From NCBI GenBank assembly GCA_934120715.1, contig CAKOUW010000002.1, forward strand, positions 78,564 through 142,563: a stretch of 64,000 nt of DNA. Reading direction: 5' to 3'. Below are positions 17,016-64,000 of the stretch, piece by piece. The translations under genes were made by a program, and so were the position numbers. This DNA is from an uncultured Bacilli bacterium (GTDB lineage: Bacteria; Bacillota_I; Bacilli_A; RF39; UBA660). Numbering within the stretch: the first letter of the stretch is position 1; every line of letters begins with the position of its first letter. The notes beneath the pieces are model-generated. The model was not told where the DNA came from and did not search any database. It was given only the letters and a program-made list of their open reading frames with translations.

Positions 17016-17169
17016 GATTTTGTAGATTATAATAAATTCGATTGCAGTGCCATAGACAGTAGGTATACAAGTAAATCCTACCGAGGACTTAGTTAGTATG
17101 TTAAAGTTCCAGGCACAGATGTTTGGAACTTTTTATATGGCATGTATAAATATATAGGGAGGTGAATTT
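17016..17169 (+). promoter_or_regulatory. putative ribosomal protein L10 leader (autoregulatory 5' UTR of rplJL)
   Basis: A 154-nt structured gap between rplA and rplJ, in the position occupied by the L10 leader in Firmicutes. A TATAAT lies at 17030-17035. No covariance-model check was possible. Confidence 0.35.
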
Positions 17170-21800: not shown

Positions 21801-22552
21801 TAGGTGTTCATATTGCTACTCCAGTTTTTGATGGAGCACATATAGATGATATAAGGGCAATGATGAAGGAAGCTGGAATGGATGAAGATGGTAAAACAGT
21901 TCTTTATGATGGACGTACTGGTGAACCATTTGATCATAGAATTGCTGTTGGTGTAATGTACATGATAAAACTTCATCACATGGTTGATGATAAATTACAT
22001 GCTCGTTCTACTGGACCTTACTCATTAGTTACTCAACAACCTCTTGGAGGAAAAGCTCAGTTCGGTGGACAGAGATTTGGAGAAATGGAAGTTTGGGCAT
22101 TGTATGCATATGGTGCTGCACATACATTACAAGAAATTTTAACTGTTAAATCTGATGATGTTGTAGGACGTGTTAAAGTTTATGAGTCTATTATTAAGGG
22201 ACAAGAAATAAATAGAGCTGGTGTTCCTGAATCATTCAGAGTATTGTTGAAAGAATTCCAAGCATTGGGTCTTGATATATCTATCATTAATGATGAAGGT
22301 GAAACATTACAATTAAAAGAAATAGAAGATGCTGAAGATAGAGAAGATTTAAATTTATCTATCGATGAATTGGAAAAGTCACCAACTAGAGAGTTAACAA
22401 AAGATTTGAATGTTGTTACTGCTGATGAAGATGAACTTGTTGATGGTGATCTTGATGAGGATGAAGACGAAGATATGGACGACTTAGATGAAGAATTTAT
22501 GGATGATATGGAAGATATAGAAGATAGTTTTGAGGAAGGAGCTGATATTTAA
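18881..22552 (+). CDS. rpoB: DNA-directed RNA polymerase beta subunit, with an acidic C-terminal tail
   Basis: Full-length RpoB homology. The start is ambiguous between ATG 18881 and GTG 18902 (RBS ggtggggtg). Confidence 0.97.
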
Positions 22553-25500
22553 TGATAGAAGTTAATAAATTTGATGCTTTAAAAATAGGTATAGCTTCTC
22601 CAGAAAAAATCCGTGAATGGTCTTATGGTGAAGTAAAGAAACCTGAAACTATTAATTATCGTACTCTTAGACCAGAACGCGATGGTTTGTTCTGTGAAAA
22701 GATTTTCGGACCTTCTAAAGATTTTGAATGTGCTTGTGGTAAATATAAGCGAGTTCGTTATAAAAATATAGTATGTGATAGATGTGGAGTTGAAGTTACA
22801 AGATCAAAGGTTCGTCGTGAACGTATGGGTCATATTGAACTTGCGACTCCTGTATCTCACATTTGGTTCTTTAAAGGTGTTCCTTCTCGTATGGGATTAG
22901 TTCTTGATATGAGTCCTAGAGATTTGGAAGAAGTTTTATACTTTGTTAGTTATGTTGTTGTTGATAAAGGAAATGCTCCTTTAGAGAATAAGCAAACACT
23001 TTCTGAAAAAGAATATCGTGCATATTATGAAAAATATGGTACTGGCTTTAAAGTTGGTATGGGAGCTGAAGCAATTAAGGAATTGCTAAAGAAAGTTGAT
23101 TTAAAGGCTGATATAGATAAAATAACTAGTGAATTAGAGACTGCTCAAGGTCAAAAGAGGACTAGATTATTAAAACGTTTAGATGTCTTAGATGCTTTTT
23201 ATAAATCTGGAAATAAGCCAGAGTGGATGATACTTGATTGTATCCCTGTAATTCCACCTGATCTTAGACCGATGATTCAGTTAGACGGTGGAAGATTTGC
23301 TACTAGTGATTTAAATGATTTATATAGAAGAGTAATAAATCGTAATAATCGTTTAAAGAAACTTATAGATTTAGGAGCTCCTGGTATCATTATTCAAAAT
23401 GAAAAACGTATGTTGCAAGAGGCAGTTGATGCTTTATTTGATAATGGACGTCGTGGTAGAAGTATAACTGGTGCTGGAAATAGACCTTTAAAATCTTTAT
23501 CTAGTATGTTAAAAGGTAAACAAGGACGTTTCCGTCAGAACTTATTAGGTAAACGTGTTGATTATTCTGGACGTTCTGTTATAGTTGTTGGACCAAACTT
23601 GAAGATGTATCAATGTGGTATACCTAAAGAAATGGCTCTTGAATTATTTAAACCTCATGTTATTAACGGTTTAGTAAAGAAAGATATCGCTCATAATATT
23701 AAAGCTGCGAAGAGACTAATAGATAATCAAGATCCTGTTGTTTGGGATATAGTAGAAGAAGTTATTAAAGAACATCCTGTTATGTTAAACAGAGCTCCTA
23801 CACTACATAGACTTGGTATTCAAGCATTTGAACCGGTTTTAGTTGGTGGTAAAGCTATTCGTTTACACCCATTAGTTTGTCCAGCATTTAACGCTGACTT
23901 TGATGGTGACCAGATGGCCGTTCACGTTCCACTATCAGAAGAGGCTCAAGCAGAAGCTAGGTTATTAATGTTAGGTGCTAACAATATCTTAAAACCTTCA
24001 AGTGGTGATCCTATTGTTACTCCAAGTCAGGACATGGTTTTAGGTAATTACTATATAACTATGGAAAAGGCTGGAGAAGATGGCGAAGGTAGAGTATTTA
24101 AAGATACTAATGAAGCTTTAATGGCTTATGAAAGACGTGAAATAACTCTACATACTCGTATTGTTATTCCAGTTGATTCATTTAAACATAAATTATTTAC
24201 AGAGAGTCAAAAGGGTAAATATTTAGTTACTACTGTAGGAAAGATTAAGTTTAATGAGATTTTACCAGATTCATTTGCTTATATTAATGAACCTACTGAT
24301 ACTAATATTTCTAGTATTACTCCTAATAAGTATTTCTTGGATAGAGGAGTTAATATACCTGAGGCTATTAAAGAGATGCCTCTAGTTAATCCTTTTGTTA
24401 AAGGAACTCTTGAAAAGATTATTGCACAAATATTTAAACGTTATAAAACTACTGAAACATCTATCATGCTTGATAGTTTAAAAGATTTAGGATTTAAATA
24501 TTCTACTATTTCAGGAATTACTGTTAGTATGGCTGATGTTGAAATTAGTAAGAAGAAACCTGAAATAGTTGCTGAAGCTCAAAAGACTGTTGATAAGATT
24601 AATAAACAGTATAAGAGAGGTTTAATAACTGATGAAGAACGTTATAACAACGTTATTAGTACTTGGAATAATGCTACTGACCAGGTAAAAGCAGAACTTG
24701 AAGCTGTTTCACATACTGATATTGATAATCCAATATTCATAATGATGAACTCTAAAGCTCGTGGTAATATTTCGAACTTTACACAAGTTGCTGGTATGCG
24801 TGGTATTATGGCTAAGCCAGATGGTACATCAGTAGAAATTCCAATTCTTTCAAACTTTATCGAAGGTTTGTCAGTTGCTGAATTCTTCTTATCTACCCAT
24901 GGTACTCGTAAAGGTTTAGCAGATACAGCTTTAAAAACTGCAGATTCTGGATATTTGACTCGTCGTTTAGTTGATGTCAGTCAAGATATGATTGTTAGAG
25001 AAGAAGATTGTGGTACTGATCAAGGTGTTGTTGTTCATGCATTTATTAATGAAAAAACAGGTTCTGTAATTGAAAGTCTACATGATCGTATTGTTGGTAG
25101 ATTTGCTAACAAGAAGATTATTAATCCAGAAACTAAAGAAGTCATTGTTGATAAATTACAAATGATTACTGAGTCTTTAGCTGATAAAATTGTGGCAGCT
25201 GGTATAAATGAAGTTGAGATACGTACTATTTTAACTTGTGCTACTCCTAATGGTGTATGTCAAAAGTGTTATGGTCGTAACTTAGCTACTGGTAACTTAG
25301 TAGAAGTTGGTGAAGCTATTGGTGTTATGGCTGCTCAATCAATTGGTGAACCTGGTACTCAGCTTACAATGCGTACATTCCACTCTGGTGGAGTTGCTCA
25401 CGGTGGTGATGCTGATATTACTCAAGGTCTTCCTCGTGTTCAAGAATTATTTGAAGCGCGTAATCCAAAAGCAAAAGCAACTATTGCTGAGATTGATGGT

Positions 25501-26190
25501 ACAGTTTCAAAGATTAAAGAAGATCATGGTAAATATAAGATTAGTATTACTAATAAATTAGAGACTAAAGAACATGTTACTAATTATGGTTCTAAGCTTT
25601 GTGTTGCAAAGGGTGATACAGTTAGTTGTGGAGATAGACTTACTGAAGGAGCTATTAGTCCTAAAGAATTACTTGCTGTTACTGATCCAATTACTACTCA
25701 AGAATACATATTAAAAGAAGTTCAAAATACATATAGATCTCAGGGTGTTGATATTTCTGATAAGCACGTTGAAGTAATAGCTAGAAGAATGATTTCTAAG
25801 ATCAGAATTGTTGAAAGTGGAGATACTAAATTCTTACCTGGTTCTTTAGTTAACTTTAGAGAATTTACTGATGGTAATAAAGATGCAATTATTAAAGGTA
25901 AAAAGCCTGCTTTAGGAAAACCAATATTATTAGGTATTACTAAGGCTGCTCTTGAAACTGATTCATTCTTATCTGCTGCATCATTCCAAGAGACTACTAG
26001 AATCTTAACGGATGCTGCTATAAAGGGTAAAGTTGATCCATTATCTGGATTAAAAGAGAATGTAATAATTGGTAAATTGATTCCTGCAGGTACTGGTAGT
26101 AAAGCTTATAGAGATGTTGAATTTGAGCTTAAATCAGAATTTATGGATGAAGAACCATTAGAAAAATTAGAAGATCAATTTATGGAGTAG
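22552..26190 (+). CDS. rpoC: DNA-directed RNA polymerase beta' subunit
   Basis: Zn-finger CX2C...CX2C and NADFDGD catalytic motif. The start overlaps the rpoB stop (ATGA). Confidence 0.97.
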
Positions 26191-44152: not shown

Positions 44153-44531
44153 GGGGCTGATTAGGTTTCGACGGGAATATTAGAGCGCAGATGGCAAGTC
44201 GATTGCTCACGTAATGAGCACAAAAAAATAAACGCAAATAAAGTTAAAAACGCAGTAGCTAATTTGTTTGGTGGAAACCAAGCAGTTGCTTTTGCCTAAT
44301 AATATAAGGCCTGCACTTTTTTCAATTTTTATCTAGGAAATTGGAAGAGGTTCATTTTTACTAGATTATAGTTATCTTTTGTCTTGAAGATAAACTGAAC
44401 TTAATAGACTAGTATATTGTTTTGGTCGTTAACTACTTGAATGATATATGAAATTAATTAGTTAACTAAACTTGTAGAGGTTTGCGTAGCTGTATTTTCG
44501 GACAGGAGTTCGATTCTCCTCAGCTCCACCA
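44153..44531 (+). ncRNA. ssrA: tmRNA (ssrA)
   Basis: The 5' end ggggctgattaggtttcgacggg and 3' end ggacaggagttcgattctcctcagctccacca (T-arm plus CCA) are present. An internal tag ORF gca aat aaa gtt ... gct ttt gcc taa taa encodes ANKVKNAVANLFGGNQAVAFA*. An extended -10 tgatataat lies at 44134-44142. Confidence 0.85.
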
Positions 44532-51803: not shown

Positions 51804-53036
51804 GTGGATAAAATTTTGATGAATGCATTAAAAAAAGAGAGTAAGAGACAAGAAGAGAATATTGAACTTATTGCTTCAGAAAATTATGTTTCTAAAGATA
51901 TTTTAAAGTTACAGGGAAGTATTCTTACTAATAAATATGCTGAGGGGTATCCTGATAATAGATATTATGGTGGATGCCAATATATAGATATTTTTGAAAA
52001 GAAAGCAATAGAATATGTAACCAAGTTATTTAATTGTAAATTTGCTAATGTTCAACCACATTCTGGTAGTAGTGCTAATATGGCTGTTTATAGAGCTTTA
52101 ATTAATCATGGTGATAAAGTTATGGGAATGAATTTATCACATGGAGGACATTTAACTCATGGACATCCTATTAATTTTAGTGGTCTTGACTATGAGGTTG
52201 TTTCCTACAGTGTTAATGAGAAAACTGGATTAATTGATTACGATGAACTAGAAAAATTGGCTTTGTCTGAAAAGCCTAAAATGATTATAGCTGGATGTAG
52301 TGCTTATTCTAGAATAATAGACTTTAAAAAATTTAGAGAAATAGCTGATAAATGTGGAGCTTATTTAATGGTTGATATGGCCCATATTGCTGGCTTAGTG
52401 GCAGCTGGATTACATCCTAGTCCTTTTCCATATGCTGATGTTGTTACTTCTACTACGCACAAGACTTTGAGAGGCCCTCGTGGTGGAATTATTTTAACTA
52501 ATAGTCCAGAATTAATTAAAAAGATAAATAAGGTGGTTTTTCCTGGTATTCAGGGTGGCCCTTTAATGCATGTTATAGCTGCTAAAGCACAATGTTTTTA
52601 TGAGGCTTTACAGGATGATTTTATTGTTTATCAAAAACAGATTATTAAAAATATGAAAGCTTTATCTGATTGTTTAATGAAAAAAGGTGTGAAAGTAGTA
52701 TCAGATGGTACTGATAATCATTTAATTTTAGTTGATGTTAAGACTTCTTTTGGATTAACTGGTAAGGTTGCTGAAAAAGTATTAGATGATATTAATATTA
52801 CTTGTAATAAAAACACGATTCCATATGATAGTGAATCACCATTTATAACTAGTGGTATTAGAATTGGAAGTGCAGCTATGACGACTAGGGGATTAAAAGA
52901 AGATGAATTTAATTTGATCGGAGAAATTATTTATAAAAGTTTAACTAATATTGATAACTTAAAAATACAAAAAGAATGTAGGGAAGAAGTTCTTGCTTTA
53001 ACTAAAAAATTCCCAATATATAAAAGAGTAAAATAA
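51804..53036 (+). CDS. glyA: serine hydroxymethyltransferase
   Basis: IELIASEN and the PLP-Lys region [17 protein letters not shown] 51804 follows ggaggtga; an alternative ATG lies at 51819. Confidence 0.93.
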
Positions 53037-53140
53037 TAATTTTATGTTATTTAAATTATAATAAATGTATCTATAATACTTTTTATAAAACAATAGATGT
53101 TTAATTTTGTATTGAATTTGTTGATAATGAGGTGAACTAT

Positions 53141-53521
53141 ATGAAAGCTTTGACAATTAAACAACCGTGGGCATCATTAATAGTCGATGGCTATAAAAGT
53201 TATGAATTCAGAAGTTGGAAAACAAATTATAGAGGCAAAATATTAATACATGCTGGCAAAAGTTTAGAAAAAGAAGTACTAGAACGCTTTTCGTGTTATA
53301 ACATGGAATATGAATTGGGAGCTATTATAGGTGAAGCTGATTTAGTTGATTGTATATTAGTTGATGAGCAATTTAATAATAAATTAAGAGAAATTAATAG
53401 TGTTGTTTATGCTAGAAGTAATCATGTTGAAACTTATGCTTGGAAATTGGATAATATAAAAAAATATGATAAGCCTATATATGTAAGTGGTAAGTTGGGA
53501 TTATGGAATTATAATTTTTAA
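53141..53521 (+). CDS. ASCH-domain (PUA-like) protein
   Basis: MKALTIKQPWASLIVDGYKSYEFRSW ASCH signature. Confidence 0.65.
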   Translation: MKALTIKQPWASLIVDGYKSYEFRSWKTNYRGKILIHAGKSLEKEVLERFSCYNMEYELGAIIGEADLVDCILVDEQFNNKLREINSVVYARSNHVETYAWKLDNIKKYDKPIYVSGKLGLWNYNF

Positions 53522-53611
53522 TTCAACCTCTAGTTGAGATTATTCAACGTATAATTTATTGATTTTAACTATTACTTTATTGTATTATTTTATTGCTGGA
53601 GGTATTTATAT

Positions 53612-54241
53612 ATGAATAAGAAAAAAATTATGATTATTTTGCTTATAGTTGTTTTTATTTTAATAAGGGTAGTAATTTATATGCATAATAATTCTAGTAA
53701 AAAAGATGATAATTTAAAAAGTGATAGTTATAAATTTGCTGAGGAATATAAGATGACTGATGCGAGTGGCGATAATATTGAAAATGTTTTTACTTATCGT
53801 AGTATGAATCAAATTATTAAAATTTTAGAAAATGGTACTGGAATAATCTATTTGGGATTTCCTGAATGTCCTTGGTGTCAACAATATGTTTATTATCTTA
53901 ATGATGTTGCTAAAAGCAAAGGTTTGAAAAAAATTTATTATAAAAATATTTTAAATGATAGAAAGAATAATACTTCTGAATATCAGAAAGTAGTTTCACT
54001 TTTAAATGACTATTTGCAATATGATGATGAAGGTAATAAAAGGCTTTATGTTCCAGCAGTAATTGCTGTTAAAGATGGTAAGATTGTTGGTTTTGATGAT
54101 GAAACTGCTTGGGATACAAAGGGATATAAAACGCCTGCTGAGTATTGGAAAAATGAAGATTTAGATGCTTTAAAACAAAAATTAGGTAATATGATTGAAG
54201 CTACTAACAAAAATGTATGTACTTCTAATTGTAATAAGTAG
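53612..54241 (+). CDS. membrane-anchored thioredoxin-fold protein (CPWC active site), bacteriocin-transport-accessory-like
   Basis: N-terminal TM, CPWC motif and a C-terminal CTSNC. Confidence 0.55.
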   Translation: MNKKKIMIILLIVVFILIRVVIYMHNNSSKKDDNLKSDSYKFAEEYKMTDASGDNIENVFTYRSMNQIIKILENGTGIIYLGFPECPWCQQYVYYLNDVAKSKGLKKIYYKNILNDRKNNTSEYQKVVSLLNDYLQYDDEGNKRLYVPAVIAVKDGKIVGFDDETAWDTKGYKTPAEYWKNEDLDALKQKLGNMIEATNKNVCTSNCNK

Positions 54242-54309
54242 GTTAATTAAGACGTTCATTTGAATGTCTTTTTTTTTGTTTAAAAATTTTTTTTCTGTTC
54301 AAAATATTT

Positions 54310-54561
54310 ATGGGAGGAAAAGTTATGCAAGAAAAATTTACAAGAGTTCCTGAAGATTTAATTTCGGGGAAAGATTTAGATTATTTATGTGATATGTTTC
54401 AATGGAATTATGGATGTTTAAAGAGTACAAATGTAGCCATGTCTGAGGTTAATGATATGGAAATAAAAAGTATTTTGGAGGAAGCATATAATTTGTTTAA
54501 TCAAAATATGAAGGTAATATTGGATATATTATCTAATAGAGGAGAGAAAGTTGATGAATAA
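54310..54561 (+). CDS. small CotF-like protein
   Basis: Small helical protein overlapping the next Coat-F-like gene. The assignment is weak. Confidence 0.35.
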   Translation: MGGKVMQEKFTRVPEDLISGKDLDYLCDMFQWNYGCLKSTNVAMSEVNDMEIKSILEEAYNLFNQNMKVILDILSNRGEKVDE

Positions 54562-54871
54562 TAATGAAGTATGTAATCCTAAGGTTGAAGTTAGTGGAGG
54601 ATTACCTTTAAATGACAAAGATTATCTTAATTGTTTACTTTCTAGTTTGAAGGAATTGGAAAAGAATTACGCTGTAGTTTTAACAGAAGCTAGTAATGAA
54701 CATTTATATAAAGTTTATAAAAATATTTTTGATAATATTTCTAGGCTTCAAAGAGATGTTTTTGAGTTGGCATTTACTAAGGGTTGGTATAAATTAGAAA
54801 AAGCTGATGCTATGGCCTTAGAAAAAGAATATCAGTGTTTGAATAATGAGTATATGGATTTAGGAATATAG
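54551..54871 (+). CDS. spore coat protein F-like (Coat_F domain)
   Basis: NDKDYLNCLLSSLKELEKNYAVVLTEASNEHLYKVYKNIFDNISRLQRDVFELAFTKGWY resembles Coat_F. Confidence 0.5.
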   Translation: MMNNNEVCNPKVEVSGGLPLNDKDYLNCLLSSLKELEKNYAVVLTEASNEHLYKVYKNIFDNISRLQRDVFELAFTKGWYKLEKADAMALEKEYQCLNNEYMDLGI

Positions 54872-54940
54872 TTTTTTCAGTATAATTTTGACAAATATTG
54901 GCTAATAATGTATAATATATCCTTGTCCTGGGGAGAGGTT

Positions 54941-55909
54941 ATGAAAATATTGTTGAAATTTAAAATATATATATTAACTATAGTTGTTTCAATTATTTCT
55001 GGAATATTTATTTACTATAGATTTAGTTATTTGGAAAAATATAAAAGTATTTCTGTTGAAACAGTTAGTTCTAGTACTATTGAATTTGGTACTGCTAATT
55101 ATGATATAAGTAATATTGTTAGCAGTGTTAGTGGAAGAATTGTTTCTATAAAGAAAGATATTGATACTAATAAAATAGGTTCTCAAAAATTAGTTTTGCA
55201 AGTAGTTAGGGATAATGTTTATAAGGATGTGGCTATCGATGTGGAAATTGTTGATAGTGTAGCTCCTATTATTAATATTGATCAAAAAGAGATTAAGATT
55301 AATCAAGGTGATGATTTAGATCTTTTTAGTAATATTAAATATGTTTATGATTTTGCTGATGGAGAAATTCCTTATTTAGAGTACGGACTTGTAACTGATG
55401 AGGCTTGTGGATATTATACTGTTACCACTGATTTTAATAAAAATGTTTGTGGATTATATAAAGTTGTAGTTATTGCTGTGGATAAACACGGTAATAAAAG
55501 TAGTGAGGAATTTGAAATTGTAGTAGAAAATGCTAAACTTTCTGCACAGGTAGTGGATATTGCACTTTCATTAGTTGGTAGTCCATATGTATATGGTGGT
55601 ACTGGTCCATCTGGTTTTGATTGCAGTGGATTTATACAATATGTTTATGCTCAAAAAGGAATATTTGTTAGTAGAAGTGCTAGTACACAAATTTTTGATG
55701 GTTATGGTGTTAGTTACGATGATATTTTACCAGGTGATATTATAAGTTGGGGTTATTCAAATGGTGTTGTTACACACTCAGCTCTTTATATTGGTGATGG
55801 TAAAATGGTTCATGCTGCTAATCCAGCTCAAGGAGTTCTAATTAGTAGTGTTGAAAATTGGACAAATACTTCAGGTGTTCAAATTCTTGGAATAAGAAGA
55901 ATAAATTAG
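54941..55909 (+). CDS. NlpC/P60-family cell-wall hydrolase with N-terminal TM anchor
   Basis: The C-terminal DCSGFIQYVY...H...H catalytic triad region. ATG 54941 follows RBS ggggagaggt. Confidence 0.8.
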   Translation: MKILLKFKIYILTIVVSIISGIFIYYRFSYLEKYKSISVETVSSSTIEFGTANYDISNIVSSVSGRIVSIKKDIDTNKIGSQKLVLQVVRDNVYKDVAIDVEIVDSVAPIINIDQKEIKINQGDDLDLFSNIKYVYDFADGEIPYLEYGLVTDEACGYYTVTTDFNKNVCGLYKVVVIAVDKHGNKSSEEFEIVVENAKLSAQVVDIALSLVGSPYVYGGTGPSGFDCSGFIQYVYAQKGIFVSRSASTQIFDGYGVSYDDILPGDIISWGYSNGVVTHSALYIGDGKMVHAANPAQGVLISSVENWTNTSGVQILGIRRIN

Positions 55910-55947
55910 TTATAATTGGTAATACTATTTGTAGGAGGGATTAATAC

Positions 55948-56148
55948 ATGGAAACACTACAAAAAGTTTTACTAGTTATAACAATTATTGGAGCTGTAAA
56001 TTGGGGACTTATTGGTCTTTTAGATTATAATTTAGTTGCTGCAATATTTGGAGAGGCGAGTCTTTTTAGTAGAATAATTTATACCTTAGTTGGTATATCT
56101 GGACTAGTGAATATAGGAATTTTATTTAATCATATTGAATCAAAATAA
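55948..56148 (+). CDS. DUF378 small membrane protein
   Basis: GAVNWGLIGL signature with two TMs. Confidence 0.6.
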   Translation: METLQKVLLVITIIGAVNWGLIGLLDYNLVAAIFGEASLFSRIIYTLVGISGLVNIGILFNHIESK

Positions 56149-56154
56149 AATTTT

Positions 56155-56176
56155 AGGACTTCGTCCTTTTTTTTTG
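56155..56176 (+). terminator. rho-independent terminator
   Basis: aggacttcgtcct followed by T9. Confidence 0.75.
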
Positions 56177-56348
56177 TTATTTTATGCGCTTTTTGTAATG
56201 TGTAACTTATCTTTATTATAGTTGTCCTTGATTTTAAATTGTGTCATATGTTATCATATATGTAGAGTGGGATGGTTTTTTAGTGTGTATTTATATTATT
56301 TAATGATTCCATTTTGTTATTTATTTTATACTTGAAGGAGACGATGTA

Positions 56349-57182
56349 ATGACAATTACTGGAACAGATCTTTTATCATTTTTGAGAAAATTAGTGGATA
56401 TTTCACTTGTTTGGTTTATATTTTATTATATTTTAAAAAACATTAAAAATAATGTTAAGCTTTCATTACTGTTTAAAGGAGTTGCTTTTGTAATTATCCT
56501 TAAATTGGTTAGTGACTGGCTAGGATTTACTACTATTGGTGTATTATTGGAATATATTATTCAATGGGGACCTATAGCGCTTATTGTTATTTTCCAACCT
56601 GAGATTAGAAATATTTTGGAACAGTTAGGTAGAAGTCAACTATTAGGACGACATAAGGTTTTGACTGTTGATGAAAGAGAACGAATGGTCTATGAAATTA
56701 TTAATGCAGTTGATTATTTGAGAAAAGAAAGAATAGGGGCATTAATAGTATTAGAACGTGATATTAGTCTTGGAAATTATATTGATAAGGCAAAGAAATT
56801 ATATGCTGATTTATCTAGTGATTTATTGATTGCTATATTTTATGAAGGTAATCCGCTTCATGATGGTGGAGTTATAATACAGGGTGATAGAATTACCTGT
56901 GCTGGAGCTGTTTTTCCAACTAGTAATAGTTCAAAGATCAATAGACGTTTGGGAACAAGACATAGGGCTGCTCTTGGATTGGCTGAAGAGACAGATGCTA
57001 TTTGTATTGTTGTTTCTGAAGAAACCGGTCGTATTTCAGTTGCTCTAAAGGGGGAGTTATTATATAACTTAACATTAGATGATACTAGAATGTTATTGAT
57101 TGATGAATTGAGACCTAAACAAGATATAGATTTAGATGATGAGGTGGATGAGGAAGAAATATATGAAGAAAGTGTTAAGTAA
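56349..57182 (+). CDS. cdaA: diadenylate cyclase CdaA (DisA_N/DAC domain)
   Basis: Three N-terminal TMs, DAC motifs DGA...RHRAA and GTRHRAALG. Confidence 0.93.
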   Translation: MTITGTDLLSFLRKLVDISLVWFIFYYILKNIKNNVKLSLLFKGVAFVIILKLVSDWLGFTTIGVLLEYIIQWGPIALIVIFQPEIRNILEQLGRSQLLGRHKVLTVDERERMVYEIINAVDYLRKERIGALIVLERDISLGNYIDKAKKLYADLSSDLLIAIFYEGNPLHDGGVIIQGDRITCAGAVFPTSNSSKINRRLGTRHRAALGLAEETDAICIVVSEETGRISVALKGELLYNLTLDDTRMLLIDELRPKQDIDLDDEVDEEEIYEESVK

Positions 57183-58518
57183 GATAGGAAAGTTTTTCCG
57201 TAAGATTGGATTGTTCTTTGATAAATTGCTAATTGCTCCAATTACTAGATTGATGTTAAAAATTACTGATTTTTTTAAGAGCAATGCAAAAAATTTTGAT
57301 AGAATAGCTGGTAAAAAATCCACGTTATTAATAGTTAGTTTAATATTAGCTTTTGCTGTTTTTGTACTTATTGATAGAGAATCAAATGTTATGATTGATC
57401 AATATGCTGAAATTTTATATAATCAACCAGTTACTGCTGTTTATAATGAAGAATTATATGTAGTTGAAGGCTTGCCTGATAAGGTTGATATTACTTTAGT
57501 TGGTCAAAAGAGACATATTTTCTTGGCTAAACAAGCGCCATCTAAAGGTGTATCAGTTGATCTTACTGGTTTGAAACCAGGTAATCATAAAGTAACATTA
57601 AAGTATACTCAACGTCTTGAATCGTTGGATTATAAACTTGATCCATCTCAAGTAACGGTTACTATTTATGAGAAGGTAAGTGAAACGCGAAGCTTAACAT
57701 ATGATTTATTACATCAGGATTCATTAGATAGCAAGTTAAGTATTAGTAATGTTGAACTTGATCGTAACGAGGTTACTATTAAAGGTGCGGCTTATAAATT
57801 GAAAAAGGTTGCTACTGTTAAAGCTCTTGTTGATGCTAAAAAAATCCCTAATAAAGCTGGAGATATTAATTTAAAAGATGTTCAGTTAGTGGCTTATGAT
57901 ACAGATGGTAAAATTGTTGATGTTGAAATTGTTCCAAAGACTGTTACAGCTAAAGTTACTGTTACTTCTCCTAGCAAGGAAGTTCCTATAAAGGTTGTTC
58001 CTGATGGTGAGTTGGCTTTTGGTAGATCAATAAAATCTATTGAGCCTAGTGTTTCATCTGTTACTTTATATGGTAGTTCAGATGTACTTGACAAGATCAA
58101 TCAATTAGAAGTAAAAATTAATGTTGATGGTTTGGAAAATGATAAAGAATTTAATGTAACACTTGATAAACCAAGTGGTGTTAATGAACTTAGTACTAAG
58201 ACTGTAAAAATTAAAGTTACTATTGATAAAACAATTAAGAAAGAATTTAAAAATATTTCGGTAACTGTTGAAAATCTTGATTCTAAGTATAAGGCACAGG
58301 CATTATCTGAAGATGATAGACAGGTAACTGTAATTGTAAGTGGTAGTGAGTCTATTATAAACGATATTGATACATCTTCTATAAAAGCATATGTTGATTT
58401 GAAAGACTACGGTGTTGGTGAATTTGATGTTCCGGTTAAAGTTACTGGTAATGATTTAAAATTAACTTATGAATCTAAGGTTAGTAAAGTTAAGATTAGA
58501 ATAACTGAAGCGAAATAG
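57136..58518 (+). CDS. cdaR: CdaA regulatory protein CdaR (YbbR-domain repeats)
   Basis: N-terminal TM plus YbbR-like repeats. It overlaps the cdaA 3' end. Confidence 0.85.
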   Translation: MMRWMRKKYMKKVLSKIGKFFRKIGLFFDKLLIAPITRLMLKITDFFKSNAKNFDRIAGKKSTLLIVSLILAFAVFVLIDRESNVMIDQYAEILYNQPVTAVYNEELYVVEGLPDKVDITLVGQKRHIFLAKQAPSKGVSVDLTGLKPGNHKVTLKYTQRLESLDYKLDPSQVTVTIYEKVSETRSLTYDLLHQDSLDSKLSISNVELDRNEVTIKGAAYKLKKVATVKALVDAKKIPNKAGDINLKDVQLVAYDTDGKIVDVEIVPKTVTAKVTVTSPSKEVPIKVVPDGELAFGRSIKSIEPSVSSVTLYGSSDVLDKINQLEVKINVDGLENDKEFNVTLDKPSGVNELSTKTVKIKVTIDKTIKKEFKNISVTVENLDSKYKAQALSEDDRQVTVIVSGSESIINDIDTSSIKAYVDLKDYGVGEFDVPVKVTGNDLKLTYESKVSKVKIRITEAK

Positions 58519-58543
58519 TCATTTAGTGGCTATTTCTTTTTTT
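58513..58543 (+). terminator. rho-independent terminator after cdaR
   Basis: gaaatagtcatttagtggctatttc followed by T8. Confidence 0.65.
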
Positions 58544-58600
58544 GTAATAAATTCATCTTTATCTAATATAATTAATTAGAATTAGATTATGGGGTGAACT

Positions 58601-59608
58601 ATGAAAAAGAAAATTTTAATTCTTCTTCTCTTGATAACAGGTATTTTTATTTCTGCTGGATGCGGCAAATATGGTGAAAAAGATGTTGTCAAAGATTTAG
58701 GCAATAAGATAAATAAGGCTAATGCTTATAAATTAGATGGTAATCTTGAAATTGTTAATAATGATGAGGTCTATAATTATAAGATTGAAGTTAGCTACAA
58801 AAAAGATAATTATTATAAGGTTAGTTTGACTAATGTTAATAATAATCATACACAGGTAATTTTAAAAAATAATGATGGAGTGTATGTGTTAACACCTTCT
58901 CTTAATAAGAGTTTTAAATTTCAAAGTGATTGGCCTTACAGTAATTCACAGATTTATTTATTGAGTGCTTTACTAAGTGATATAACAGATGATAATAATA
59001 GGACTTTTAAAGAAACAGATAATAGTTATATATTTTCTACTAAGGTTAATTATCCTAATAATAAAGATTTAGTTAGACAAGAGATAGAATTATCTAAAAA
59101 GTTGAAATTTAAGACAGTTAAGGTTTATAATTCTAAAGATGTATTATGCATGACTATGAAGTTTAACGATATTGATTATTCACCAACATTTAAGAAAAAT
59201 TATTTTGAATTGGACACTATCATGAGTACTTATATCATAGATTCTGATGAGGTATTGGAAACAAGTAACTTAGATTCTTCTATATATCCTCTTGTTGTAC
59301 CTACTGGTACTAAACTTACTAGTGAGGAAAAACTAAAGAAGGATACAGGTGAACGAATAATTCTAACATTTGATGGGGAAAAACCATTCCTATTAGTAGA
59401 AGAGACAGCAAATGTTGAAGAGGAGTTTACTATTATTCCTACATATGGGGAACCATATCAGTTGATGGATACGCTAGGAGTTATGACTGATAATTCATTG
59501 ACATGGACTAGTAATGGAATTGAATACTATATTGTAAGTGATGTCTTAAGTCAGAATGAACTGATTGAAGTTGCTCAATCAATTAATGTGTTACCAACTA
59601 TGAAGTAG
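58601..59608 (+). CDS. putative lipoprotein (lipobox ...ISAGC)
   Basis: Signal peptide plus a lipobox Cys, and no clear family. Confidence 0.55.
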   Translation: MKKKILILLLLITGIFISAGCGKYGEKDVVKDLGNKINKANAYKLDGNLEIVNNDEVYNYKIEVSYKKDNYYKVSLTNVNNNHTQVILKNNDGVYVLTPSLNKSFKFQSDWPYSNSQIYLLSALLSDITDDNNRTFKETDNSYIFSTKVNYPNNKDLVRQEIELSKKLKFKTVKVYNSKDVLCMTMKFNDIDYSPTFKKNYFELDTIMSTYIIDSDEVLETSNLDSSIYPLVVPTGTKLTSEEKLKKDTGERIILTFDGEKPFLLVEETANVEEEFTIIPTYGEPYQLMDTLGVMTDNSLTWTSNGIEYYIVSDVLSQNELIEVAQSINVLPTMK

Positions 59609-59688
59609 AGTTTTGCTCTACTTTTTACTTGTAAATATTTATTGTTATTCTATTTTTACTATGATATAATACCCTTAGGTGGTTTGTT

Positions 59689-60201
59689 ATGGCAAAAAAA
59701 AATAAAAGTTTAAATTATGGTAATACAGAATTTAGTTTACAATTTAAGAATATTATTATAGTTAGTATAATTGTTTTGGTTTCTTTAGGATTGTTTTATT
59801 TATTAACAATTGCTCTTTTGGGTAAGAAGCCTACGGTTGATACATCTGGTGGTAGTAGTGATACAACTATTCAAAATCAAGAGATTTTATTAGGTTCTAG
59901 TTTTAATATTAGTTCTGATAGATATATTGTTTTATATTATGCTTCAGATGATCAAGATAGTTCTTCTGATATTAAGTCTTTAGCTACTTCTTACAGGGCT
60001 AAGGATGATGCTTTAAGTCTTTATACTGTTGATTTAAGCGATGCTTTAAATAAAGCTTTTGTAACTACTGATGAGTCTAATCCTGATGCTAGTAATGCTA
60101 GTGAAATGAGAGTTAAGAATCCAACACTTATTGTATTTGAAGATGGAAAAATTAACGAGTATATAGAGGGATTTGATTCTATTAAAGATTATTTAAGTTA
60201 A
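59689..60201 (+). CDS. hypothetical membrane-anchored protein
   Basis: ORF with one TM and an S/D-rich region. Confidence 0.4.
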   Translation: MAKKNKSLNYGNTEFSLQFKNIIIVSIIVLVSLGLFYLLTIALLGKKPTVDTSGGSSDTTIQNQEILLGSSFNISSDRYIVLYYASDDQDSSSDIKSLATSYRAKDDALSLYTVDLSDALNKAFVTTDESNPDASNASEMRVKNPTLIVFEDGKINEYIEGFDSIKDYLS

Positions 60202-60220
60202 CCACATAATGTGGTTTTAT

Positions 60221-60297
60221 GCCTCAATAGCTCAGCTGGTTAGAGCACTTGACTGTTAATCAAGGGGTCCTAGGTTCAAGTCCTAGTTGGGGCGCCA
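60221..60297 (+). tRNA. tRNA-Asn (anticodon GUU)
   Basis: Cloverleaf folded by hand: acceptor GCCTCAA/TTGGGGC, D-arm gctcagctggttagagc, anticodon loop ctGTTaa, T-loop ttcaagt, discriminator G and encoded CCA. Confidence 0.9.
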
Positions 60298-60463
60298 TTT
60301 ATTTTAGAATATGTTACATTTAAGATATCATAAGATATCTTTATTTATTGAAAAAATTTAATAATGTTATTTTAAAGAATTAGCTACCTATATAATTGGG
60401 TAGTTTTTATTGTAAAAGTTTGCATTTTATGTTATTATATCATGCATTAGGGGAGGTTTATGC

Positions 60464-62032
60464 ATGTTAAATTTTGATGTAGGGACTTTATTATCAAATA
60501 TGACTGACAATATGTTACATAATACAAATGAGATTTTTAAATTATTTGGTAGTTTACTTTATACTGATGAAGAAGGTCAATCTATATTGCATATTTTGGT
60601 TGCTGATAATTTTGATGAGGAAAAATCTTTTCTTGCTATTAAGTCGTTGTTGCAATCTGGACTAAGTCCCAATGCTGTATCGAGTTACAATTATAATTAT
60701 AATTTTATTCAAACTGCTTTGTGTGCTGGTCATAGTGAGAAATTTATTTTAGATATTATTACTGAATCATTAAAATATGGTTTGGATGTTAATCATGTTG
60801 ATGCCAATAAAGATACTATTATGCATGCTGCAATATATAGTAATAATTATTCAGGTAGTCTTGAAAAGATTTACGATTTGTTGTGCGAGAACGGTTTTGA
60901 TTCATCTTTAAGGAATGATGAAGGAAGAACTTTACTTGAAGCTTTGAGTTGTCAAGGAAACTATTCTAGTGAACAAATAGAAGGATTTAAGCAAAAGTTT
61001 GAAGAAAGATATCCTGCATCTAATAATTGTGCTCAAACAAAGGAAGATGAGGTTGACATACCAGTAGGACAAGAAAGCTCTATTTATCAAACATTGTCTA
61101 ATGATGATATTTTAGAACTTGAAAAATATGGTCGAGTGTTAAATCAAAAAGATTATATAGTTGAACCTGCTATCGGAAGAGATAAAGAATTGAAAAATCT
61201 TATGATAGTTTTAGCACAGGATAAAAAGAATCCATTGATTGTTGGAGAATCAGGTGTAGGAAAAACCACAATAGTGGATGAACTTGCTTATAGAATTATA
61301 AATGAAAATGTTCCTGGATTTTTACGCGATAAAATAATTTTGGAAGTTAATCCAAGTGATATTGTTGCTGGTTCTCAATACGTTGGAATGTTTGAAGATA
61401 AGATGACTAAATTATTGAGGTTGTGTGAAGAACTTGATGTAATAATTTTCATCGATGAAATTCACGAAATATATGGTATGGGTTCATCAGCTAATAAAGA
61501 TAGTGATATGGCATCTATGTTGAAACGTTATATTGATAGATCCGATTTAAAAGTAATTGGTATAACAAGTGAGGATGAATACGAAAAGTATTTTGCTCAT
61601 GATGCTCTTAAAAGAAGATTTGAAAAAGTCACTGTTAAAGAACCTGTAGATGAAGATCTACACCAAATAGTAGATAAAGTAATTGGAGATTATTATGTAA
61701 AAAATAGTGTTTTTTTTGAAGATGAAAGTGTGAGAGAGCAAGTGGTGGCTATTATATTAGCTGCTACAGGAAAAAGTTCTAGGGTTTATAATGATGTAGT
61801 TAATAATCCAGATTTATCAATATCTATTGTTGATAGAGCATTTGCATTGGCAAAATTTTATGATAGTGAATTTGTTACACTAGAACACTTTGTGGAAAGT
61901 TTTAAATCCTGTGATAGAATTTATGAATTTTCAAAAGAACAAGCGATAGCTAATTTAAGAAGTTTAGATACTAGTATATCTAAACCAACTCAGAAGATTT
62001 TTAAAATGGACTGTAATCGTTTTAAAAAATAG
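60464..62032 (+). CDS. ankyrin-repeat protein fused to a single ClpA/ClpC-type D1 AAA+ ATPase module
   Basis: The N-terminal ~180 aa carry ANK-like repeats (ILHILVA..., TALCAGH..., MHAAIYS...). The C-terminal part aligns with ClpC D1: GRDKELKNLM..., Walker A GESGVGKTT, Walker B IIFIDEIHE and the RRF sensor. There is no N-domain, M-domain or D2. Confidence 0.7.
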   Translation: MLNFDVGTLLSNMTDNMLHNTNEIFKLFGSLLYTDEEGQSILHILVADNFDEEKSFLAIKSLLQSGLSPNAVSSYNYNYNFIQTALCAGHSEKFILDIITESLKYGLDVNHVDANKDTIMHAAIYSNNYSGSLEKIYDLLCENGFDSSLRNDEGRTLLEALSCQGNYSSEQIEGFKQKFEERYPASNNCAQTKEDEVDIPVGQESSIYQTLSNDDILELEKYGRVLNQKDYIVEPAIGRDKELKNLMIVLAQDKKNPLIVGESGVGKTTIVDELAYRIINENVPGFLRDKIILEVNPSDIVAGSQYVGMFEDKMTKLLRLCEELDVIIFIDEIHEIYGMGSSANKDSDMASMLKRYIDRSDLKVIGITSEDEYEKYFAHDALKRRFEKVTVKEPVDEDLHQIVDKVIGDYYVKNSVFFEDESVREQVVAIILAATGKSSRVYNDVVNNPDLSISIVDRAFALAKFYDSEFVTLEHFVESFKSCDRIYEFSKEQAIANLRSLDTSISKPTQKIFKMDCNRFKK

Positions 62033-62074
62033 AGAAAATATGATATTGGTGGATTAACACCTTTTTAGAATAAC

Positions 62075-62103
62075 AAAAACTAATCTCATATTGGATTAGT
62101 TTT
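62075..62103. terminator. bidirectional terminator between convergent genes
   Basis: aaaaactaatctcatattggattagttttt. Confidence 0.65.
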
Positions 62104-62116
62104 AGGGCAGTTTTTA

Positions 62117-62635
62117 TTAAAAAATGTGCTCTTTTATTATACAACTAACAATTAATTGCTTTTCTTTATTAGTGGGACTACATGTTGTTAAAACTAGTTG
62201 ATTGTCATATTCTTCTTTGAAATTTATAGTTCCATTTTTTTCTTCTTCCCAAATATTTTTTACTATATATTTATTTTTATTATTATCTAGATTTATGATT
62301 ATTTCATCATTGATATTTAATTGGTTTAAATTTTTAAAATATGCTGCTTTTCCAGTTCCTGAATGAGCTGCTAAAACAATGATATGATTATTTTTGTATA
62401 AGAGCGCGACATTTTTATCAACATCATTGTTAGGACTTTTAATATCATATAAGTCATTGTTTACTTTTATTTTTGGTATTATGATATTTCCAATGGGCTT
62501 TTCTTTTTTTTCTATGTAGTTATATCCTATTTTTGCTCTAGAAATTCTTTTTTTGATTTTATTAGATGGTATATTGTAGTTCATTAGTCCTGAAAACAGT
62601 ATAATGATTATGGCTATTGTAAGCTTCTTGTCCAT
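62117..62635 (-). CDS. sortase (class B-like)
   Basis: N-terminal TM anchor, His in VLAAHSG, catalytic Cys in LVLTTCSP, ~170 aa. Confidence 0.75.
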   Translation of the reverse strand: MDKKLTIAIIIILFSGLMNYNIPSNKIKKRISRAKIGYNYIEKKEKPIGNIIIPKIKVNNDLYDIKSPNNDVDKNVALLYKNNHIIVLAAHSGTGKAAYFKNLNQLNINDEIIINLDNNKNKYIVKNIWEEEKNGTINFKEEYDNQLVLTTCSPTNKEKQLIVSCIIKEHIF

Positions 62636-64000
62636 AAAATTACTAATATTCCTCTAATTAAATCAATTATATTAATTTCATTTGTACCTGTATTTGGTAC
62701 TTTTATTTTATAATCAGTTAATTTGAAGACTTGCTCTTTATTAGAATCTATTATTATTTTGAATGGTTCAATAATTTCATAACCAGTAATAGTTGTTGTT
62801 TGCTTTATCGTATATTCCCCATATGGAAGTTCAATTTCTATTTCACCGTTTTCATCTGTTATAATTGTTTTAATTAATTTACCATCTTTATTGTATATTT
62901 CGAATGAGGCATTTGGTTCATTATATGATCCAGTTTCATTTTGATATACTTTATTTATGATTACTTTGGCTTTTATTACTTTATTGGTTAGATTTAATTC
63001 TATTGATGGATTTTCTTTACTTAATTCAAATTCATAAATGTTGTTGTCTAGTTCATAACCAGTACCTGCTTTTTTTTCTTTTATATAATATTTTTGATAT
63101 GTTAAATTTGATATTTCAGCGGTAGAGTTTTCATCTATTTTTATTTCTTGTACTAGTTCTTTATTAGCATTAAAAATTTCATATATAGCTCCTTGGAGAT
63201 TTGCATCTCCGCTACTTTCAGTAGTGTTGTTATCATAATCTAATTTTTTAATTATGATGTTTGTTTCATCTATATTTACATTTACATTTACTGTTAATGG
63301 ATTTAAGTCACCTGTTTCCATTAGGTTTTGACTATTTGGAGAGTTATAAAAAATTATTGGTTTATTGTAGTATGTGTCTTTTCTTTCTAATATAAAATTA
63401 TATGTTCCTTTTTTGGAACTATCTATTATTAATTTATTATTATCTATTTTAGCAATATTGTTATTGATTGAATAATTGTTTAGAATGTTGTTATAATCTG
63501 TTATAGTTGTAGTTTCACCGACAACATAATTAAATGTTTTATCACTAAAACTTGGTATTATTTCATAATTATTTATTAAATTATTTATTTCGTTTATTTC
63601 ATCTTGATATATATTTATTCTATTTCCATTAAGTCTATCTGTAAAATAGAAATCTCCATCTGGCATAACTGTTTTCCAGATCATTAATTGCGTTATAGCA
63701 TACCATTTTATATCATAGTGATTTTTGTAATTATAGCCAAAGTGTGCAATTAATGATACCTTTTTTAGTTGCTCTTCTGACAGGTTTTCTGGCCTTGTAG
63801 ATGATGTATATGCTTCACTTTCTTTTATAGGTGTAAATGGTTCTAGGCAGTAGGCAAAATTGTTTGTGCCTTGTTGTCTTTGAACTCTGAATTGTTGATA
63901 ATATGTTATTCTATTTGGAGCAACTCTATTTACCCATATTCCCTGTATGAATTCTCCTTCATAAAATTTTTCATCACTTGCTTTGACGTTGATGTGTGTT
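62614..64000 (-). CDS. sortase-anchored surface adhesin, 5'-truncated by window end; thioester-domain-like N-terminal region plus Cna-B/SpaA-like repeats and a VPNTG sorting signal
   Basis: The minus-strand frame stays open upstream of the ORF-track Met to position 64000. It reads ...FAYCLEPF...AITQLMIW (a TED-like Cys motif and TQxxIW Gln motif), then GEYTIKQTTTITGYE Cna-B-like repeats. The C-terminus is KVPNTG followed by a hydrophobic segment and basic residues. Confidence 0.6.
   Translation of the reverse strand, partial: THINVKASDEKFYEGEFIQGIWVNRVAPNRITYYQQFRVQRQQGTNNFAYCLEPFTPIKESEAYTSSTRPENLSEEQLKKVSLIAHFGYNYKNHYDIKWYAITQLMIWKTVMPDGDFYFTDRLNGNRINIYQDEINEINNLINNYEIIPSFSDKTFNYVVGETTTITDYNNILNNYSINNNIAKIDNNKLIIDSSKKGTYNFILERKDTYYNKPIIFYNSPNSQNLMETGDLNPLTVNVNVNIDETNIIIKKLDYDNNTTESSGDANLQGAIYEIFNANKELVQEIKIDENSTAEISNLTYQKYYIKEKKAGTGYELDNNIYEFELSKENPSIELNLTNKVIKAKVIINKVYQNETGSYNEPNASFEIYNKDGKLIKTIITDENGEIEIELPYGEYTIKQTTTITGYEIIEPFKIIIDSNKEQVFKLTDYKIKVPNTGTNEINIIDLIRGILVILWTRSLQ

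Follow-up and report, generated by a model that had tools for sequence, protein, structure and literature searches.

The 64,000-nucleotide stretch of DNA analysed here (the window; positions 78,564 to 142,563 of contig CAKOUW010000002.1, from an uncultured Bacilli bacterium) ends in two overlapping minus-strand genes, one coding for an adhesin with a thioester domain (TED), of the family known as TIE proteins, and the other for a small sortase. The adhesin coding sequence occupies 62614..64000 and the sortase open reading frame (ORF), of 172 residues, 62117..62635, all coordinates of the two genes being on the minus strand of the window. An earlier note, made by a model from the letters of this stretch, had proposed a dedicated small sortase directly downstream of the adhesin, on the same strand and overlapping its stop; the gene lies there, overlaps the adhesin 3' end by 22 nucleotides (nt) and codes for a member of the Pfam Sortase family.

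The adhesin gene and its thioester domain

Between 62614 and 63999 the translated adhesin frame runs for 461 codons without a stop and stays open to the window edge, as the earlier note had described for the part upstream of the Met listed as the ORF start. The remainder of the gene comes from L001, a contig that was retrieved among metagenome contigs by exact-sequence look-up with the sortase and that matches window 52117..64000 at 100% identity along 11,884 nt. It adds 15 signal-peptide residues, MKKIILILIIALTAI, bringing the complete adhesin to 476 residues (L001 8592..10022), of which the window holds 461 codons and the stop. Neither an upstream stop nor a frameshift, the two faults considered from the outset as fatal to this reading, occurs in L001, where only 45 nt separate the window edge from the ATG. 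The full N-terminus, MKKIILILIIALTAITHINVKA followed by SDE, is a Sec-type signal peptide whose C-terminal end (..THINVKA, 63979..63999) is predicted from its motif to be cleaved after VKA; its residues V20 and A22 are conserved in 118 adhesin homologues, the set to which the adhesin conservation counts given below refer.

The thioester domain that had been proposed from short motifs is supported by domain models, by alignment and by the predicted fold. The adhesin scores 39.9 bits with Pfam TED (PF08341), where the cut-off is 22 (E=6e-10), a match far beyond chance like those of the Pfam models for its stalk and for the sortase, and in a phmmer search of PDB sequences residues 45-241 of the window-encoded fragment align with the Staphylococcus aureus SaTIE-TED (6FX6, E=2e-9), a stretch that covers both the Cys and the bonded Gln. 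An AlphaFold2 model built with 84 homologues has a mean predicted local distance difference test (pLDDT) score of 92.6, and its best Foldseek matches in the PDB are Bacillus anthracis BaTIE (6FWV, E=1.9e-27, 488 aligned columns) and SaTIE-TED 6FX6 with a target template modelling (TM) score of 0.71. The domain, at 63265..63978 (full-length residues about 23-260), consists of a head lobe and an inserted beta-sandwich, and the model presents in order the Cys strand, three helices, an all-beta insert of ~65 residues and a hairpin with Gln239. This order agrees with what Miller et al. 2018 (PMC6194298) describe for Class II TEDs, whose head lobe has a beta-sandwich of ~75 residues inserted after alpha3 and before the hairpin that bears the Gln. 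In addition, one relative is named 'Cys-Gln thioester bond-forming surface protein' by NCBI.

The identity of the bond-forming Gln had to be revised. The segments FAYCLEPF, with its Cys codon at 63847-63849, and AITQLMIW, with its Gln codon at 63688-63690, are both present in the translation, and the earlier note had paired these two residues, 53 positions apart, which led it to consider a different Cys or a minimal variant of the domain. This worry over a short spacing arose because the bond Gln was wrongly assigned to the TQxxIW motif. TQLMIW (63676..63693) is an instance of TQxxΦW, the third conserved TED motif, whose Gln and Trp are dispensable for bond formation, the bond-forming Gln of TEDs sitting far downstream in a weak ΦQζΦΦ motif (PMC6194298). 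In our alignment the Cys of the YC[IL]EPF motif, Cys66 (63847..63849), aligns with Cys296 of SaTIE (chain position 47), and Gln467 of SaTIE (chain position 218) aligns with fragment residue 224, that is, full-length Gln239, in the sequence SPNSQNLM (63328..63330). Since Cys296 and Gln467 are a crystallographically bonded pair (PMC6194298), the Cys-Gln spacing is therefore 173 residues, to be compared with 171 in SaTIE, 195 in BaTIE, 204 in EfmTIE86 (PMC6194298) and 188 in TIEpLS20 (PMC8092201). Cys66 and Gln239, each found in 118/118 homologues, are predicted from this sequence comparison to form the internal thioester.

That the TED is a minimal or new one, its Cys66 bonded to the TQLMIW Gln at a distance of 53 residues or some other Cys taking this role, could be argued from the invariance of both Cys66 and Gln119. 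Trp123 and Gln239 are invariant as well, and the Gln of TQxxΦW is conserved across all TEDs although it is dispensable for the bond. As the domain is full-size, matches Class II TED structures over ~240 residues and has its Gln239 aligned with the bonded Gln467 of SaTIE, we regard such a variant as extremely unlikely. The adhesin is an ordinary full-size Class II TED (TIE) protein, a new member of a known family.

Stalk domains and sorting signal

The TED is followed by two SpaA/CnaB-type domains recognized by Pfam (E=6.9e-26), the beta-sandwich repeats that the earlier note had read from the sequence, and this stalk aligns with BaTIE 6FWV in the phmmer search (E=6e-25). Stalk domain 1 (62971..63264) has a complete isopeptide triad, aligned to BaTIE IPD1 and formed by K267 (63244-63246), E323 (63076-63078) and N354 (62983-62985), the first two invariant and the third present in 117/118 homologues. 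In stalk domain 2 (62704..62970), K365 (62950-62952) is likewise invariant and position 444 (62713-62715, Asp here) holds Asp in 92 homologues and Asn in 26, but the catalytic Glu is replaced by Gln415 (62800-62802), as seen when ...YKE-TIAPNGY of BaTIE is set against ...IKQ-TTTITGY of the adhesin. This Gln is also invariant, as is the nearby Glu376 (62917-62919), which is particular to this adhesin family. The catalytic-Glu position of domain 2 is equivalent to Glu77 of SpyCatcher. The E77Q form of SpyCatcher is inactive. From these sequence features, stalk domain 2 may form no isopeptide bond or may have its acid supplied by another strand. On a point of numbering, Glu443 is given as the catalytic residue of BaTIE IPD2 in PMC6194298, whereas the repeats, offset by 91 residues (Lys384/475, Asp464/Asn555, Glu?/524), and likewise the alignment indicate 433; Glu443 is probably a typographical slip, without effect on the conclusions.

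The adhesin ends in ...KIKVPNTG-TNEINIIDLIRGILVILWTRSLQ and the stop. The VPNTG motif (62686..62700) and the hydrophobic helix that follows it (62617..62685, modelled by AlphaFold2 at fragment residues 444-460 and paralleled in the tails of homologues) had both been noticed in the initial reading of the sequence, which had also seen basic residues at the end; the tail is in fact weakly basic, with a single Arg near the end. The motif was rightly called non-canonical, although its Gly is incidental, the family conserving only [VI]-P-[ND]-T. Pro and Thr occur in 118/118 homologues, while the residue after Thr may be K, H, Y, R, G, S, N, T, A or V, with Gly in 13 sequences. The 72 adhesin-sortase pairs taken from species-representative genomes have at P1' K (20), H (19), R (10), S (9), Y (6), N (4), G (2), Q (1) or E (1), at P2 N (52), D (16), Y (3) or E (1) and at P4 V (69) or I (3). 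As Gly is this rare at P1' across the family, the VPNTG of the window resembles a canonical signal only by accident. The tails of the homologues, of 17-25 residues, are hydrophobic with embedded charge and often lack a basic end. The family thus shares with LPXTG-type signals the PxT core and a hydrophobic segment at the extreme C-terminus, but has Val or Ile for their Leu at P4, only rarely their Gly at P1' and often no basic tail, and none of the NCBIfam LPXTG-anchor models matched the adhesin at E≤1. The PxT core retained in this signal is needed by all characterized sortases.

The paired sortase and its distribution

The sortase passes the Pfam Sortase model (PF04203; 47 bits against a cut-off of 26.6, E=2.7e-12) and the generic NCBIfam sortase model TIGR01076 barely (40.2 bits against 39.35). 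It misses the NCBIfam cut-offs of class C (52.7/160), class D (38.1/165), SrtD (39.8/140) and class E (17.9/160), and does not match classes A, B and F at E≤1. Its AlphaFold2 model (pLDDT 85.8) shows a beta-barrel, from about residue 48, after an N-terminal membrane helix (residues 4-15), and retrieves class C and class A sortases in Foldseek with E about 3e-9. His91 (62363-62365, in AAHSG) and Cys152 (62180-62182, in L-T-T-C-S-P) are invariant in 113 homologues, and so is the whole Thr150-Thr151-Cys152 run. The family is large, with 333 clusters at 50% identity recovered at E≤1e-30. One protein of 623 residues (P0257) carries a sortase domain at residues 460-622, and is either an adhesin-sortase fusion or an artefact of frameshift or gene calling across the overlapping genes.

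The Arg of the His-Cys-Arg triad, stated for all sortases in a 2026 paper (PMC13257024), is missing here, and its position is occupied by Gln160 (62156-62158). In the model, Cys152 is the last residue of beta7 and residue 159 the first of beta8, which makes Gln160 the second residue of beta8, where solved sortases have their Arg (for example Y328-R329 in SrtE1). Gln160 follows Cys152 at a distance of 8 residues, and in SpySrtA, Spy0129, SrtC-1, SrtC-3 and CdSrtA the Arg follows the Cys at a distance of 8-9. In a profile of the C-terminal half, LTTCSPtkkn-KQLII aligns with LITCTPYAVNsHRLLV of Corynebacterium diphtheriae SrtA, so that the Gln falls on Arg231, the catalytic Arg of CdSrtA according to a sortase review. 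Two further comparisons were uninformative for beta8: a phmmer search of the PDB with the last 59 sortase residues, aimed at aligning this strand, returned chance matches only, and the hhalign alignment of the family with S. aureus SrtA ends just past the TC motif. The position-160 column contains Gln in 112/113 close homologues and, among 144 further representatives of 50%-identity clusters, Gln in 138, Tyr in 4 and Arg in 0. Arg never occurs at this position in the sequences examined, which number about 330. Whatever alignment is chosen, the share of Arg does not exceed 18% in any column of the family.

The sole invariant basic residue of the sortase family is Lys133 (62237-62239). It sits where the long beta6 ends, entering the beta6/beta7 loop, which in SrtA binds the sorting signal, and it might compensate for the absent Arg or read the Asn/Asp at P2. 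In SpySrtA the Arg hydrogen-bonds the P4 and P3 carbonyls of the substrate and the Thr preceding the Cys forms the oxyanion hole (PMC9520033); the equivalent residue here, Thr151, is invariant. An evolved SaSrtA with Arg replaced by Ser is an efficient transpeptidase with changed specificity (PMC9520033), while the Arg-to-Ala mutants R216A and R200A of SpySrtA and Filifactor alocis SrtA have lost most or all activity (PMC9520033, PMC13257024). From the roles of Arg and Thr in SpySrtA, the invariant Thr151 and the Arg-to-Ser SaSrtA, sortase activity despite Gln160 is plausible. The sortase and its signal make up a variant of a known anchoring system of which we found no description; nor did we find any account of sortases lacking the Arg, although literature coverage was incomplete and this is accordingly weak evidence.

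Relatives of the adhesin were collected as 250 stretches of a species-representative genome collection, and the locus counts refer to the best 80 of these. A sortase of the same family directly follows the adhesin on the same strand in 76/80 loci, and in all but four of those 76 the two genes overlap, typically by 4-47 nt. These 80 loci come from gut metagenome-assembled genomes titled Bacilli, Tenericutes/Mollicutes, 'Mycoplasma sp. CAG:877', Candidatus Faecimonas or Erysipelotrichaceae, with goat, sheep, water deer and rabbit among the hosts named in the titles, and human-cohort samples too. For RF39 genomes, peptidoglycan built with meso-diaminopimelic acid (m-DAP) and the retention of sortases have been predicted (PMC10868615). 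The window itself carries ORFs of the size of rpoB/rpoC at 18881-26190, ribosomal protein genes and cdaA/cdaR, together with a tmRNA (44153-44531), one tRNA (60221-60294) and a ribosomal protein L10 leader (17032-17144), these three on the plus strand and at Rfam gathering scores. Because housekeeping genes flank it, the adhesin-sortase unit is core chromosomal and not on a mobile element, and a tblastn search of the sortase against 72,556 plasmids gave no match, which together with these flanks argues against an origin in plasmid conjugation such as that of TIEpLS20.

Interpretation of the unit and its surroundings

We consider it probable that the two genes form a chromosomal operon of a low-GC gut member of the Bacilli, coding for a TIE-type adhesin and its own membrane-anchored minimal sortase, with Gln160 in place of Arg and an altered sorting signal. 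Homology, fold, conserved residues and gene pairing are what the analysis shows, whereas the formation of the bonds is inferred, and so are the site of cleavage, the acceptor and the target of adhesion. As judged from homology to solved proteins, the adhesin would be secreted via Sec, and the Cys66-Gln239 thioester and at least one isopeptide bond would form autocatalytically. The C-terminal helix would then retain the adhesin. The sortase, probably translationally coupled to it through the 22-nt gene overlap, would use Cys152, His91 and Thr151 to cleave after Thr452, while Gln160, perhaps aided by Lys133, would hold the V-P-N/D segment in position. Gln160 occurs alongside a changed signal, in which P4 is Val, P2 is Asn or Asp and P1' is not fixed. 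The adhesin would be transferred to the amine of a peptidoglycan precursor, probably an m-DAP-type stem peptide. Finally, by analogy with characterized TEDs, the exposed thioester would be attacked by an amine on a host or microbial target, creating a covalent isopeptide link.

Several points weigh against such a system. Its chemistry, be it of thioester, isopeptide or sortase, is wholly inferred; stalk domain 2, having Gln in place of the catalytic Glu, may lack an isopeptide bond; the adhesin tail is short, charged inside the helix and hardly basic at its end, and lacks an LPXTG-anchor match at E≤1; the sortase is devoid of an Arg regarded in the literature as universal and, in most cases, essential; and the RF39-like radiation of its relatives has been read from record titles and not from a phylogeny. 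The Gln in place of Arg, the failure of most or all activity in the Arg-to-Ala mutants of SpySrtA and F. alocis SrtA (PMC9520033, PMC13257024), the atypical tail and the variable residue after Thr could together be taken to mean that the sortase is degenerate or repurposed, with the adhesin simply tethered by its C-terminal helix or the enzyme acting as a processing or release protease only. However, the His, the Thr-Thr-Cys and the Gln are kept across more than 250 sequences spanning about 330 clusters, which speaks for purifying selection and not decay, the PxT core is strictly conserved beside the helix, the pair is maintained in 76/80 species, and the Arg-to-Ser SaSrtA is an efficient transpeptidase (PMC9520033). 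We therefore hold a degenerate or repurposed enzyme to be improbable.

A minimal pilus system, in which a class C-like sortase would polymerize the adhesin or attach it as the tip to some pilin whose gene lies elsewhere, has less still in its favour. Class C sortases are indeed the best PDB matches in sequence and fold, the pilus tip adhesins Cpa and RrgC bear signals of the VPxTG type, and in the model the PxT directly follows the last stalk strand, as in pilins. We set this possibility aside as very remote because no second pilin gene accompanies the pair in the window or in the 80 related loci, no YPKN-type pilin motif was seen on reading the adhesin sequence, the sortase, with its barrel from about residue 48, is too short for a class C lid, and its class C score of 52.7 is far below the cut-off of 160.

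An adhesin anchored by its own sortase remains the interpretation that we favour, and it can be placed next to several known systems. With SaTIE-TED 6FX6 and BaTIE 6FWV (PMC6194298), the adhesin shares the YCxE Cys motif, TQxxIW, a bond Gln well downstream (at 173 residues, against 171 and 195), the inserted beta-sandwich, an N-terminal signal peptide, a sortase signal at the C-terminus and CnaB stalk domains, of which the first has here the complete Lys/Glu/Asn triad. It differs from them in being only 18-21% identical, shorter (476 residues) and restricted to two stalk domains, with Gln for the catalytic Glu in the second of these, in having VPNT-x instead of LPATG and a dedicated overlapping sortase, and in being encoded by a core chromosomal gene of uncultured gut commensals, whereas SaTIE and BaTIE belong to pathogens. 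TIEpLS20 (p34), encoded by the Bacillus subtilis plasmid pLS20 and needed for conjugation (PMC8092201), likewise has a Class II TED, with a predicted Cys68-Gln256 bond, followed by CnaB domains. By contrast with the present adhesin, which is chromosomal among housekeeping genes and has a PxT signal and its own sortase, it is plasmid-borne, lacks a sorting signal and is sortase-independent.

The sortase, for its part, has in common with class C/D enzymes (C. diphtheriae SrtA 5K9A, Streptococcus agalactiae SrtC1 4D7W, B. anthracis SrtC 2LN7) the beta-barrel, the His after beta4, a Cys ending beta7 in T-x-T-C-x-P, the Cys-to-beta8 spacing of 8-9, an N-terminal membrane anchor and a gene adjoining that of the substrate. 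It departs from them by its Gln160 for the catalytic Arg, by the lack of a lid, by scores far below every NCBIfam class cut-off and by its size, with only about 125 residues beyond the membrane anchor. A comparable association of a TED with a V-P-x-T-G signal and a specialized sortase in the same locus is found in the Streptococcus pyogenes FCT pilus, whose tip adhesin Cpa has a TED, a VPPTG signal and a dedicated sortase, and the signal of Streptococcus pneumoniae RrgC is VPDTG. Cpa differs from the adhesin studied here in that its TEDs are of Class I, that it is a pilus tip subunit joined to the major pilin, and that the sortases involved have retained their Arg and the signal its Gly.

Taken by itself, the adhesin becomes one more member of the very large TIE family and its apparent anomaly disappears. 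The clade with Gln for Arg bears on an open argument about sortases, in which the Arg is seen either as part of the oxyanion hole or as a means of substrate positioning (PMC9520033). If active, the Gln160 sortases would offer a natural test of that role, favouring substrate positioning over catalysis, and might be transpeptidases of new specificity, whose recognition motif would be a new one in protein ligation. Among uncultured RF39-like Bacilli of the gut of humans, ruminants, rabbits and chickens the pair forms a conserved core unit, and it is a candidate route for the covalent attachment of these reduced-genome bacteria to the surface of a host or partner. Going further, and with a confidence that falls somewhat short of even, we suggest that the paired sortases may represent a large clade of which we found no description, with a His-Cys-Gln active site and a [VI]-P-[ND]-T signal without fixed P1', serving as the conserved means by which a widespread and uncultured gut lineage of reduced genome displays a covalent adhesin on its surface.

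Around the two genes, the upstream side is occupied by a protein of 245 residues that falls beyond the window (L001 7557-8294). It has a membrane helix at its N-terminus, two internal repeats and no Pfam match, and is conserved on the same strand in 63/80 related loci. We examined it as a third component and rejected it: in one related locus (L008) a gene on the opposite strand intervenes, and most loci have a similar gap of ~1.9 kb. The protein is syntenic yet probably outside the unit. The intervening gene of L008, as we read its sequence, presumably codes for a formate-tetrahydrofolate ligase-like enzyme.

Consensus promoter and terminator scans of this AT-rich DNA yielded nothing above shuffled expectation. 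Just past the sortase stop, an AU-rich hairpin with a U-run (62076..62103, minus strand) has an RNA folding free energy of -8.4 kcal/mol (z=-3.7 against shuffles) and is probably the terminator of the two-gene unit, although it escaped the consensus scan for terminators, in which a minimum of 3 G-C pairs is required. A gene for an AAA+ ATPase of 522 residues (60464-62032, plus strand), whose N-terminal ankyrin-like region has only faint Pfam matches, converges on the sortase gene. In L008 its position is taken by a protein of 423 residues in the opposite orientation, which we take, on reading it, to be an S41-type peptidase. At 62001-64000 the GC content is 25%, against 22-35% elsewhere in the window, and the GC skew drops from about +0.3 across the window to 0.02 and the AT skew to -0.26 exactly over the two minus-strand genes, a change in keeping with strand-specific coding composition more than with a foreign insert.

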